Positions 33,931-61,079 of a DNA stretch of 64,000 nucleotides are shown piece by piece; the first letter of the stretch is position 1; each line of letters starts with the position of its first letter. Location of the stretch: positions 11,643 through 75,642 of IMG/VR virus record IMGVR_UViG_3300000103_000003; one strand, written 5' to 3'. The translations under genes were made by a program, and so were the position numbers. This DNA comes from a virus. The notes under the pieces are model-generated. The model saw only the letters and a program-made list of their open reading frames with translations. It was not told the DNA's origin and made no database searches.

Positions 33931-33958
33931 AATATATAATTTAATAATTAATAAAGCA

Positions 33959-33990
33959 CAAATATACGGAATATTTCGGACATTACCAAA
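33959..33990 (-). promoter_or_regulatory. Bacteroidota primary-sigma promoter
   Basis: TTTG-N20-TATATTTG on the minus strand. Confidence 0.8.
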
Positions 33991-34298
33991 TGTTTTTGCA
34001 ATTATTTTTTGCAGGGCTGGAAAAAAATTATTTTTAAATAGCCCTGTGTCGTTTTGTGAAACTGGAGAATAAGGCTCCGATTATACGCGTATAATTTATT
34101 AGCCCTGCAAAATTATTTTTCAATTCATCAACAACTCCAGTGACAATATATCCTATACAAACAATAACAACACAAAACAATAGAGAAGGCACAACACCAA
34201 ATAATGTAAAGCCAACAAATAACCCTTCAGAATAAAACCGGGTGTCGGAACGTTTTCTCAAAAACGACCCAAAAATTTTTTGAGATACACTTTAAAAC

Positions 34299-36322
34299 TA
34301 ACTTTCTGTATATCAGCTTGCGGAAAACAAAATGGAGCCTTAAATCCAGCTGGCAAATTATCTATCGAAATATGGAGATACTTTGTGGACGTTTGAAAAT
34401 GCTATATCTCGCTAAAAGCATGTGTTATTAATACGTTATAGCGAGTTATAATTAGTTGTTTCAAAGTAAAGATAGAAACTTGCCAGCGTTTTAAGGCGAT
34501 TTAAGAGGCTCAAATTTAATATGGATATATACCTCGGAATTTTAATTACTTCTTTAAATTCGGATTCGTAACGTATATATTCTATATTTGTTACATGTTT
34601 GTCGCAAATAACACCAATAATTGCGACAGGCTTAGAACACCAGTTTAAATTAAGTGTTAAAATGCAAAATACATTCACAATTCACGAAATGCGAAATCGG
34701 GCTTACAGGTATCTCTTGTATCGGTCGCTCCGGGAGAGAATAAAAAAGTTTTTAAGAACTATATGGGTAGGAATATACCAGTCGCGCATATCGTCTTACA
34801 GAGCGTACAGAGGCACATCACCAGAACATCCACAGAACTTAGACAAGGTGTCCAAGAAAATGTCCGAGTATGGCGGCACGGTGGAATGAGTGTGTTTGGG
34901 GGGTTATTTTGTCAATTTACTGGAGGAAGACCCAGTGTAAGTACGGTACTCGCACCAGAAAAGAGGGGGTGGTCGGTTTTTTTATTTTTTAACATTAGCC
35001 CCCTCCAAACACCGATGAAATCGTCATAGTCTTCACATTCATTAAGTTAATTATTTTAACATTTTATTTTCTAATTTCATAACTCTTTGATTTACAATTA
35101 ATTAAAAAATAAGTTTCACTTTTATAAGTAGTAAAACCTTGATTTACAAACAGTTATCTAAAAAACGCTAAAAGACTGATTATCAAGTATTTAGCGTTTA
35201 GATAATCCCTTCTTTTTTTTTAACTACTTGACTATTAAACCTTTAAAAAACCACGAAAAACACTGCAAAACACACAAAAAACATTTATTTCTCCATTCGT
35301 TGAAAAACGTCATCTATTTTCTTTTAAACTATTCATTTTCAGTCAATTAAATTATTTTTAATTTTAAAAACACTTTTTAATTTTAAAAACACTTTTTAAT
35401 TTCAGATTAAAACTTTTTCATTCGTTTTTCTTTTAATTTATTATATTTATTCGTTCACAAACTTACAATTTATAAGTATATTTATATCTATCTTTATTTA
35501 AACCACTGAAATACAACCTTTTGTATTGTCTTCTCCGAAGACTGAAAAGAAAAGGACTTTTTGTACTACAAAATTTTATACTTTTATTGTGTATTCCTTC
35601 TCTATGTATATATATATTGTTTATTCTTTTTCCTTAAAAATATATTTCCAGACCTACGCACGCGCACGCGTATGTATGCGTATGCAATGAATGTTATATA
35701 TACTTTATCTTATTGTATGTTGTTTATCTTATTATTGTATCTCTTCTCTTATACTATTTATTCTTTGTTTTAAAAAATATTTTTTCAGGACTAAAAGCAT
35801 ATACACCGATGTACATTTATTCGTCCATTGTCGAAGTAAGAATAGATACAACACTATTATAGTGCGAAAATAGCAACCAGACAAGGCAAATTTGCACCCA
35901 TTTTTATTTAAAACGTTGAATATCTTTATTTTAAGTCAAACTATAAAATTTAGTTTATCGCGTTCCTGTTCGCAATTTTCATTTTTTATTGTATTTATTT
36001 CCTTAGGCGTATTTTGTTGCAAAATATATTTTCAGTCCTGAATGAAAAAGCATCTATATTCCACTGAACACCAGTATTTTATATATCAAAAAATAACAAA
36101 ATACTATGTTTTTATAGTCCTATTTTCTTAAAGCGTTTATTTTCAATGTTTTAAACAAATAAGAAAAAAGACCTTTATAAGTTGTTGTATTTCAGACTAT
36201 TAAAAACTAACTATCTATATATCAAGCTCTCCAGAAAAATACAAAAAACCGATTATTTCCATTTTATAAAACATTGATTATCAATATAGTTATTTTATAA
36301 GTGACTGAAAAACAGTTATTTA
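34299..36322. repeat. Dispersed cluster of a degenerate 25-bp dyad (TAA-N4-YTG-N5-CAR-N4-TTA-like)
   Basis: About 11 imperfect copies, e.g. 35080 TAACTCTTTGATTTACAATTAATTA, 35132 TAAAACCTTGATTTACAAACAGTTA, 35169 TAAAAGACTGATTATCAAGTATTTA, 36178 TAAGTTGTTGTATTTCAGACTATTA, 36298 TAAGTGACTGAAAAACAGTTATTTA. Confidence 0.7.
35355..35402. repeat. 19-bp tandem repeat, about 2.5 copies
   Basis: TTTTTAATTTTAAAAACAC twice plus a partial copy. Confidence 0.75.
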
Positions 36323-36425
36323 TATCATCAAAAAAGTTTATTTTCGGTTTCGTCCTTGAAACTGGGGGTTTCGTCCTCGAAAACGGCAGTTTTGTACAAT
36401 AAAAATTTTTATTTTAAAAAAAGTA

Positions 36426-36455
36426 GTTGAGATTTAAAAAGTCGCTATATCTTTG
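36426..36455 (+). promoter_or_regulatory. Primary-sigma promoter (early region P1)
   Basis: GTTG-N18-TATCTTTG. Confidence 0.55.
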
Positions 36456-36584
36456 CTTTCGGTTTCAAGAGAGAAACACTTTTTTAAACTTCTTTATTTG
36501 TTTATTATTAAAATACACTATGCGACGGTTTCCATGTTGAGATACAGCACTAAATAGAGTTTAATAATTTTTAACATTAAAAAT

Positions 36585-36615
36585 TTTGTAGTTTAAAATA
36601 TCGTTACTTACTTTG
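36585..36615 (+). promoter_or_regulatory. Primary-sigma promoter (early region P2)
   Basis: TTTG-N19-TTACTTTG followed by CA; one mismatch. Confidence 0.55.
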
Positions 36616-36860
36616 CAACCGCAAACGAATAACAAAGGTTATTCAATAAAACAAAATTCTTTATTCTCCATGCGAAAATAACACTATGCAGGAGTGAAAC
36701 AAAATACTAATAAGTAGCCGAGTGTTAAACGGTTTAGTTCATTGACGTACTGAAAGACTTATAAACGTGGAAATTTAAAAAAGCGTATCTTATAAGGACA
36801 AAAAACAAGTTATCAAAAATAATTTTCGTAGTTTAGACGAAACAATATAACGATAACAAA

Positions 36861-36920
36861 GCGGTTGTAAGCCTGAAAATAGGGTTTAACTTGTAGCGAT
36901 AACAACAACCGCACAATATT
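36861..36920 (+). ncRNA. tRNA-like mini-structure 1 in the early leader
   Basis: 7-bp stem GCGGTTG/CAACCGC enclosing a hairpin plus TTGT-AGCGATA-ACAA, followed by ACAATATT. Confidence 0.6.
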
Positions 36921-36946
36921 TATTAATCATTTTAATTTTAAAAATT

Positions 36947-37465
36947 ATGAAAACGAAAAATTTAGTACAAAACGAAGTATATTTATATTTCGCACCAGAT
37001 TACAAAACAGCGCAATATGTAGAATTTTTGGGCTATTGGGAAAACAACGATGTTTGCATATTTTGTTTAAAAAACAATGATATGCGACTAACAAAACAGC
37101 AAGTTCGCACCTGCATTTTTGATGCAAGTAACGAAATTTCAGAACTTTGTGAGGACGTTTTAAATGTTGCTCGCAATAACCCAAACGGGTTTACTTATAA
37201 CCTCTTAACGGAGGCTAAAGAAACAAGCGGTTACAGTGTTGCTTATGCTGCAACTCAAAACAATTCAAACGACTTTAAAAAGGCGGTTAAGCACGCTTTA
37301 TTGCATCGTGGTATTGTTGGCGGTTGGATAGATAGCGAAACCAATACTATTTATATCGACAGTGTTAAAATACTGCATGATAAAAATATGGCTATTGAGG
37401 TCGGCAAACATGAAAAACAAATTGCTATTTTTTGCTTAGACGAAATGACCGAAATAAGGCTATAA
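36947..37465 (+). CDS. First early gene; conserved phage hypothetical protein
   Basis: GFT...GYSVA...VGGWID...YIDSV...AIEVGK..KQIAIF pattern recognised from other phage proteins. Confidence 0.85.
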   Translation: MKTKNLVQNEVYLYFAPDYKTAQYVEFLGYWENNDVCIFCLKNNDMRLTKQQVRTCIFDASNEISELCEDVLNVARNNPNGFTYNLLTEAKETSGYSVAYAATQNNSNDFKKAVKHALLHRGIVGGWIDSETNTIYIDSVKILHDKNMAIEVGKHEKQIAIFCLDEMTEIRL

Positions 37466-37471
37466 GCCTAA

Positions 37472-37525
37472 GCCGTTGCAAACGTGGTTTGATAATGGGA
37501 GCAATACCCACAACGGCACAATATT
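37472..37525 (+). ncRNA. tRNA-like mini-structure 2
   Basis: GCCGTTG/CAACGGC stem, CAAAC-GTG-GTTTG hairpin, TGGG-AGCAATA-CCCA hairpin, then ACAATATT; covaries with structure 1. Confidence 0.65.
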
Positions 37526-37546: not shown

Positions 37547-37780
37547 ATGTTACATTACGAAATTATTGCGGACGTTGTAAATTCGTCGCTTTCAGTGAAT
37601 GAAGTTGTAAACGCGCTTACTATGTTAGGGTATGTTTATTGCCCTTTAGGTAGCAAATATTTTGGTTATGCAAGCACAACGGGCTGCATACAGTCAATTT
37701 TTGATTTGCCTGAAACGGCAAAGGAATATTTGCCAGTAGAAAATGAAATTAACGGAATTATTGAATATTATAAAAATTAA
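37547..37780 (+). CDS. Small early hypothetical protein
   Basis: ORF track; A-rich initiation region. Confidence 0.75.
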   Translation: MLHYEIIADVVNSSLSVNEVVNALTMLGYVYCPLGSKYFGYASTTGCIQSIFDLPETAKEYLPVENEINGIIEYYKN

Positions 37781-60243: not shown

Positions 60244-60315
60244 TTGCGAGCTGGGGAATCGAACCCCATACCATAAGATAATGAGCCTTACATGCAACCG
60301 GTACACCTGCTCGCG
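60244..60315 (-). tRNA. tRNA-Met (CAT), initiator-like C1:A72 mismatch, atypical anticodon arm
   Basis: CGCGAGC/GCTCGCA acceptor, TGGGG-TTCGATT-CCCCA T arm, TAAGG-CTCATTA-TCTTA anticodon arm; CCA not encoded. Confidence 0.88.
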
Positions 60316-60519: not shown

Positions 60520-60650
60520 AATTTTATATTAGTTTCGATAAGCCCCCAGCAGTTTCTAATGTTACTTACTGGAGGCGAGGGTCACAGGCTCCACGCCTAT
60601 GAGGGGTTTCTTAACCTTAGACTTTGAATCAGGGAGAATAAGGTATTGGG

Positions 60651-60722
60651 TTGGTTTAGAGGGATTTGAACCCACAGCCTCCACCGTATCAGGGTGTTGC
60701 TCCACCGTTGAGCTATAAACCA
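60651..60722 (-). tRNA. tRNA-Ile (GAT)
   Basis: TGGTTTA/TAAACCA acceptor, GCTC/GAGC D stem, CTGATAC loop, GGTTCAAATCC T arm. Confidence 0.92.
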
Positions 60723-60910: not shown

Positions 60911-61005
60911 ATTTAAAATGACTAATACACAGTTCTTCGGGATGTATATTAGTTCTATACTCGAAGTTCCTTACTGGTGTGCTATTTGAGCGTTAAGGAA
61001 CATAT

Positions 61006-61079
61006 TGGGGAGGATAACGGATTCAAACCGCTATTTGTGCCGAAATCCAGCACCGTCCTATCAATTAGACGAATCCCCC
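61006..61079 (-). tRNA. tRNA-like gene with an aberrant anticodon loop (undetermined or pseudo)
   Basis: GGGGGAT/ATCCTCC acceptor, GTC-TAATTGATAG-GAC D arm, AGCGG-TTTGAAT-CCGTT T arm; anticodon loop GGATTTC lacks U33 and purine 37. Confidence 0.7.

Follow-up and report, generated by a model that had tools for sequence, protein, structure and literature searches.

The first two early genes of an uncultured phage are each preceded by a small, Y-shaped RNA element of 55-60 bases and common design, and this locus raises the question of what the two elements are, whether they mimic tRNAs and how they might act on the early mRNA. The DNA analysed (the window, 64,000 nt) corresponds to positions 11643-75642 of an IMG/VR virus record of 106,694 bp, whose completeness is estimated at 96%. 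The phage encodes structural genes (tape-measure tail, portal and terminase), replication and nucleotide genes (split PolIII-alpha, DnaB, primase, SbcCD, RNR, ThyA and NAD ligase), as well as an RNA ligase and tRNAs. Its terminase shares 47.6% identity with that of Bacteroides phage BS-TP1, and the closest terminase (64% identical) was located on a 3.5-kb contig. No close relative emerged when gene 1, gene 3 and the terminase were used as protein queries. On the sequence evidence, the virus is classed as an uncultured Bacteroidota-type phage of a singleton lineage. To our knowledge, little is known about how Bacteroidota phages shape their early messages. A repeat-rich, 3-kb non-coding island (33931-36946) precedes a long run of small + strand ORFs, the early array, which spans 16 kb and contains approximately 50 genes. 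Within the island, a repeat of approximately 28-44 nt ending in AAAATAT(A/T)TTT(C/T)CAG(A/G/T)(C/A)CT was observed at 35613-35656, 35750-35793 and 36012-36039, and similar strings with TTTCAGA were located near 35402 and 36190; the repeat (35613-36039) may represent a promoter class other than host sigma-A or, alternatively, replication-origin repeats. The two genes in question were as follows:

36947..37465, + strand: gene 1, 172 aa, the first ORF after the island, with an element on either side (ORF list)
37547..37780, + strand: gene 2, 77 aa, an orphan and the first cistron after element 2 (ORF list)

Searches of Pfam and PHROG did not assign gene 1 or gene 2 to any family. The C-terminal part of the gene 1 product (approximately 105 aa) belongs to a widespread, mostly viral, unnamed domain with no assigned function. 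Among 15 billion proteins, 313 distant homologues were found; fusions to other domains occur in some of these, and none is more than 50% identical. An Atlas structure search returned, with weak similarity (TM 0.62), a cluster whose members carry PF23780 (S-AdoMet lyase family) in 24% of cases; we treat it as a lead that the first early gene might encode a T3-like anti-restriction SAM lyase.

The elements and their parts were assigned as follows:

36861..36920, + strand: element 1 (sequence, minimum-energy and centroid fold, covariance model, pair counts)
36861-67 / 36906-12, + strand: element 1 outer stem GCGGTTG/CAACCGC, 7 bp
36868-88, + strand: element 1 hairpin 1, 7 bp including two G-U pairs, 7-nt loop GAAAAUA, followed by the linker AC
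36891-36905, + strand: element 1 hairpin 2, UUGU / AGCGAUA (36895-36901) / ACAA, 4 bp
36913-20, + strand: element 1 single-stranded tail ACAAUAUU (DNA ACAATATT)
37472..37525, + strand: element 2 (sequence, fold, pair counts)
37472-78 / 37511-17, + strand: element 2 outer stem GCCGTTG/CAACGGC, 7 bp
37479-91, + strand: element 2 hairpin 1, 5 bp, loop GUG, followed by the linker AUAA
37496-37510, + strand: element 2 hairpin 2, UGGG / AGCAAUA (37500-06) / CCCA, 4 bp
37518-25, + strand: element 2 tail ACAAUAUU, identical to the element 1 tail

The first-pass annotation had described these two elements as sharing one architecture, and every item that it listed was present in the sequence: the compensatory swap in the outer stem (GCGGTTG/CAACCGC versus GCCGTTG/CAACGGC), the 4-bp stems (TTGT/ACAA versus TGGG/CCCA) stacked on the outer 3' strand and closing AGC(G/A)ATA, and the identical tail ACAATATT, whose distance to the ATG, given there as 20-26 nt, was 26 nt in element 1 and 21 nt in element 2. 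The distance from the end of the junction to the ATG was 34 and 29 nt, respectively. In both elements, hairpin 2 abuts the outer 3' strand with 0 nt between them. For both elements, the minimum-energy structure and the centroid from RNAfold were one and the same three-way junction (-16.3 and -16.4 kcal/mol), and the junction was retained when the elements were folded in 130-nt contexts, in which the start regions were unpaired. Energies and z-scores were better on the + (mRNA) strand, with z-scores of -2.76 (element 1) and -2.66 (element 2) as compared to -0.74 and -1.24 on the - strand, and hairpin 1 of element 1 contains two G-U pairs. Exactly two copies of the element were found in the 106.7-kb genome; a covariance model built from element 2 alone (R1) recovered element 1 (39.9 bits, E 6e-9) as its sole match in the genome. 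The only difference between the two AGC(G/A)AUA loops falls on the R of GNRA, and a simpler reading of the AGCRAUA loop would be a GNRA tetraloop (GCGA/GCAA) that is closed by an A-U pair and leaves one A bulged. A pseudoknot between loop and tail (RAUA with UAUU) was rejected on geometric grounds, as 4 nt would be too short to span the 11-bp stack.

The selection acting on this structure was evaluated by counting pairs in a structure-guided alignment of the two copies, with controls in which the 3' partners were slid by 1-3 columns. Standard base pairs were found in both copies at 16/16 positions, among them the outer-stem swap; the changes included four two-sided compensatory ones and one A-U to G-U change. 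In the slid-partner controls, pairing fell to 33-48%. When the same number of stem bases was mutated at random in simulations, all pairs of the outer stem and hairpin 2 were kept in a fraction of 9.4e-4 of the trials, and every pair of all stems in 4e-5. The copies differed at 9/32 stem bases, 1/7 heptaloop bases and 0/8 tail bases. Because the stems vary and yet pair, while the heptaloop and tail are conserved, the structure is under selection, and the loop and tail are, judging from their conservation, probably recognised by something. The elements are thus two copies of one structured RNA, selected for pairing, on the mRNA strand. As only two sequences are available, without a homologue, the covariation rests on four events.

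Alignment of the flanking context indicated that the repeat unit is longer than previously described. A common 10-mer, TTAGACGAAA, is located 18 nt (copy 1) and 26 nt (copy 2) upstream of the outer stems:

36833..36842, + strand: upstream box TTAGACGAAA, copy 1, the 3' half of the hairpin UUUCGU-AGUUUAG-ACGAAA (centroid fold)
37436..37445, + strand: upstream box TTAGACGAAA, copy 2, inside the last gene 1 codons (L-D-E), able to pair with UUUUG at 37430-34

On the downstream side, ACAATATT(T/A)ATTA is common to both copies, as is AAAAATTATG at the start codons. The region upstream of element 1 was considered as a remnant of a duplicated gene 1; this was rejected, as no homology was found beyond the 10-mer TTAGACGAAA. 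A hairpin without a counterpart in copy 1, AGGCU-AUA-AGCCU (37457-37467), spans the gene 1 stop codon just before element 2.

The clear promoters of this phage follow the Bacteroidota sigma-A pattern TTTG-N20-TAnnTTTG, and host-type promoters were scanned for as TTG-N17-22-TAnnTTTG with one mismatch allowed in the second box. In and next to the elements, the motif scan identified no host-type promoter accompanying both copies, even with one mismatch, and TTTG-N19-21-TAnnTTTG was absent in or beside either element. The nearest + strand candidates were located 250-400 nt upstream:

36586..36615, + strand: nearest upstream host-type promoter candidate, TTG, 19 nt, TTACTTTG, second box at 36608 (motif scan)
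36427..36455, + strand: second upstream host-type promoter candidate, TTG, 18 nt, TATCTTTG, second box at 36448

The candidate at 36586..36615 would yield a leader of approximately 320 nt containing element 1. Since no promoter was found in or beside the elements and the nearest candidates lie 250-400 nt upstream, both elements are situated inside the early mRNA, and element 1 is predicted to form the end of a leader of at least 320 nt within the early transcript. Element 2 fills the 81-nt gap after gene 1, starting 6 nt past the gene 1 stop codon. With element 1 before gene 1 and element 2 beginning 6 nt behind it, gene 1 is bracketed.

Several simpler identities were rejected. The negative motif scan in and beside both copies spoke against a host promoter within the element. 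An intrinsic terminator was dismissed since no U-run follows the stem (the tail is ACAAUAUU) and the terminator scan was empty at both elements. An N4-hairpin-type promoter for a phage RNA polymerase was discarded as well, as no gene for such a polymerase was seen in the genome.

The region upstream of element 1 contains further small features. At 36427-36500, the promoter candidate (TATCTTTG) runs directly into the hairpin GGUUUC-AAGAGA-GAAAC(A)C, with UUUUUU behind it. This stretch has the appearance of a short, self-contained RNA (about 35-40 nt), and the Rfam models assigned it only a weak, ctRNA_pND324-like score (19.5 bits, E 8). The GUUUC...GAAAC hairpin was present three times (36346-36387 and 36466-36482): two copies lie in a 21-nt tandem repeat (GGTTTCGTCCTTGAAACTGGG / GGTTTCGTCCTCGAAAACGGC), and the third (36466-36482) is the terminator-like hairpin after the 36448 promoter. 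The 8-mer CAACCGCA at 36616-36623, directly after the 36608 promoter box, equals the 3' outer strand of element 1 plus the first tail base, and the perfect hairpin GAATAAC-AAAG-GTTATTC lies 3' of it. The 8-mer could be due to chance (about 1% in 500 nt) or could serve as an alternative partner for 36861-67.

The first-pass annotation had interpreted the elements as anticodon-less tRNA mimics. As such, they would be top-half substrates of RNase P, RNase Z or the CCA-adding enzyme, excised as mini-RNAs of approximately 52 nt and possibly acting as decoys. In favour of this proposal, the 7-bp outer stem is contiguous with the 3' strand of hairpin 2 in both copies and thus adjoins a stem with a 7-nt loop, and loop positions 3-5 (C-R-A) match C56-R57-A58 of the T-loop. 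However, these are the only matches of the loop (A-G-C-R-A-U-A) to the signature U54-U55-C56-R57-A58, with A-G in place of T54-Psi55, and the loop may be read instead as a GNRA tetraloop (GCGA/GCAA) closed by A-U. The stem of hairpin 2 comprises 4 bp in both copies instead of the 5 bp of a T-stem, and since the flanking bases (C and C) are unable to pair, the stack amounts to 11 bp and not 12. The motif GGTTCRANYCC, the conserved T-arm sequence by which plant t-elements are defined (PMC1920247), was absent from both elements. ARAGORN and the Rfam tRNA and tmRNA models returned no match, even at E<=10 on 65-71 nt of each element, and no canonical mini-tRNA was found elsewhere in the genome. The T-loops of the phage tRNAs are canonical (TTCGATT, TTCAAAT and TTTGAAT). 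Three tRNA-shaped genes were observed on the - strand (60244-60315, 60649-60722 and 61004-61079), all with canonical T-arms and none with an encoded CCA (0/3); ARAGORN reported one of the three and the Rfam model two.

Where CCA is not encoded, tRNA precursors usually obtain their 3' end through an RNase Z-type cut just past the discriminator. The absence of CCA from the phage tRNA genes would lead one to expect 3' cleavage of this type in the present system, and the CCA-less tail (A-CAA) after the acceptor-like stem is therefore permissive. The eight conserved bases of the tail exceed what RNase Z requires. Warfare at the RNA level is also plausible in a phage that carries tRNAs, an RNA ligase and an abiF-type RNA. 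Taken together, what stood of the earlier interpretation is a paired, structured element in the early mRNA before the first two start codons, for which a part in processing or stabilising that message would be reasonable; the tRNA mimicry did not hold up with respect to the loop, the stem length and the models, and this reading, unsupported in its defining features, is possible yet unlikely.

The first-pass annotation could not match the elements to a family, which agreed with our results, since no Rfam covariance model (ribozymes, riboswitches or leaders) matched them. A hammerhead, another ribozyme or a riboswitch was rejected on the same basis, and no ribozyme was detected in the phage genome. 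Among the matches listed for exact-pattern scans of IMG/VR, only chance ones were present (script-screened); a further pattern gave no match, and another gave 16 matches, none of which (0/16) folded like the element. Matches were inspected by reading, by script and by covariance model. The pattern scan of JGI metagenomes returned two chance matches in coding DNA, and that of GTDB genomes the same chance match. Homologues across phages, which the first-pass annotation had hoped to reach by covariance model, did not appear: model R2 found nothing in Bacteroides phage BS-TP1, in six IMG/VR relatives (43-48% terminase identity) or in contigs with distant gene 1 homologues. Upstream of gp56-gp60 and gp65 of BS-TP1, no analogous repeated fold was observed. 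In the gp112-gp113 gap of BS-TP1 (record about 97970-98009, + strand), a fold with an acceptor-like 7-bp stem (TACTCAC/GTGGGTA), a 5-bp stem and the loop TTTGATT was noticed. It is a possible canonical mini-tRNA-like minihelix, but since the descriptor finds approximately one chance match per 100 kb, it may well be without meaning. With two copies only and no homologue, the function is not readable from synteny, and as a two-copy orphan motif in one uncultured phage the element has a limited reach.

The best explanation, to which we assign a probability of about 0.4, is that the elements are paralogous copies of a cis-acting RNA signal for the processing or stability of the early polycistronic mRNA, an orphan matching no described family. 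The early mRNA would be made by the host RNA polymerase from the host-type promoters 250-400 nt upstream. Each copy forms a compact three-way junction, followed by single-stranded ACAAUAUU(U/A)AUUA and then by an A-rich, unstructured start region devoid of a Shine-Dalgarno sequence; Bacteroidota translate without Shine-Dalgarno pairing. A host endonuclease would cleave the transcript in or beside the junction, the conserved tail being the probable site, and candidate nucleases would be RNase Z or RNase P, with the acceptor-like stem as their target, or an RNase E/G-type enzyme that cuts AU|AUU. Such a cut would free the message of its long leader and split gene 1 off from gene 2 and the genes behind it; every upstream fragment would end in a stable fold at its 3' terminus, and each downstream cistron would gain a short, open leader of about 28-33 nt. 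Two observations speak against processing: the element is present at only the first two of approximately 50 early genes, whereas general punctuation would be expected at more junctions, and no tRNA-specific signature is available to recruit RNase P or RNase Z. A bolder version would make the elements an undescribed class of phage mRNA punctuation, in which the host tRNA-maturation enzymes recognise and excise a minimal three-way junction that has a GNRA heptaloop but no T-loop, so that gene 1 (possibly anti-restriction) becomes a stabilised monocistronic message within seconds of infection, with the 52-nt RNA maybe serving as a decoy. We regard it as decidedly unlikely; if true, it would widen the substrate range of those enzymes. 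A compact, selected fold that brackets the first early gene offers a testable handle on mRNA processing, stability or translational control in Bacteroidota.

The main rival to a processing or stability signal is a protein-binding translational operator, in which a phage or host RNA-binding protein would bind the junction and switch genes 1 and 2 together, either as early-gene shut-off of the kind exerted by T4 RegA or as autoregulation by gene 1 or gene 2. Such an operator would account equally well for the conservation of loop and tail: a constant heptaloop and single-stranded tail, combined with stems free to covary, are what protein-RNA operators typically show. In both copies, the element borders the ribosome-binding region on its 5' side with almost constant spacing, and its presence at two genes only suits a small regulon. 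Nevertheless, no RNA-binding protein was recognised among the neighbouring genes, and occlusion would have to be indirect, given that the junction lies 29-34 nt from the ATG and the start region is open; on balance, we consider an operator somewhat unlikely. A boundary at the DNA level appears quite improbable. The elements would then be recombination or shuffling sites around a mobile early gene, or single-stranded DNA replication hairpins beside the 3-kb island. The repeat occurs on both sides of gene 1, as PeSLs border ORFans (PMC2839356), its unit extends into the flanks, and the elements adjoin the repeat-rich non-coding island. The unit, however, has no host-type promoter, a defining part of PeSLs, and exists in two copies only. 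Its fold is asymmetric between the strands, and recombination sites require neither compensatory stems nor a conserved loop and tail.

We consider it very improbable that the fold acts as a processive antitermination RNA (put/nut type), modifying the host polymerase on the nascent transcript to read through terminators or Rho along the 16-kb array. Two matched copies early in the early operon, after a long untranslated leader exposed to Rho, would suit this role; HK022 also has a covarying pair of copies, putL and putR, and the loops of boxB resemble GNRA. Both copies are nonetheless located in one operon, 611 nt apart, where one would suffice, with no terminator-like site nearby downstream and no sequence likeness to boxA. 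It is scarcely credible that the elements imitate the CRISPR repeats of Bacteroidota type II-C or VI-B systems as an RNA anti-CRISPR, even though their GTTG...CAAC cores (46 and 40 nt) have termini and lengths typical of Bacteroidota repeats (PMC6390457, PMC5395568) and the early region may hold anti-defence genes. Eight published Bacteroidota repeats, which are maybe not those of the host, aligned with the elements no better than with shuffled interiors (p 0.36 and 0.61), no Rfam CRISPR-DR model matched, and the conserved tail and the GC clamp fall outside the would-be repeat.

Among known systems, the PeSL cassettes of T4-type phages (Arbiol et al. 2010, PMC2839356; Comeau et al. 2014, PMC4122927) combine a strong host-type promoter with terminator action, and each genome contains dozens of them. 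The phage elements resemble them as repeated intergenic units with a variable stem-loop that flank small orphan early genes, but differ in having no promoter motif, no U-run and only two copies in 106.7 kb. The t-elements were found via the T-arm motif GGTTCRANYCC as tRNA punctuation of organelle transcripts (Forner et al. 2007, PMC1920247). Like the elements studied here, they are short folds with an acceptor-like stem next to mRNA ends in a polycistronic transcript, proposed to direct endonucleolytic cuts and to define 5' and 3' ends. The phage fold, in contrast, is known from sequence alone, carries the loop AGCRAUA on a 4-bp stem and is not scored by any tRNA model. As in HK022 put and lambda nut, two matched, small folded RNAs that combine a conserved loop with a single-stranded box lie near the beginning of early transcription. 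The HK022 and lambda copies serve two divergent operons, whereas both phage copies lie in one operon, with no boxA-like sequence and no terminator nearby. In the T7 early operon, the RNase III sites R0.3 and R0.5 bracket the first early gene, and the fold, once cleaved, stays attached to the upstream mRNA at its 3' end, with a stabilising effect. The T7 hairpins are long and irregular and extend over about two helical turns; the three-way junction of the phage stacks only 11-14 pairs and thus falls short of what RNase III typically cleaves. The likeness to T7 lies in the placement, with one structured element before the first early gene and another between the first and the second.
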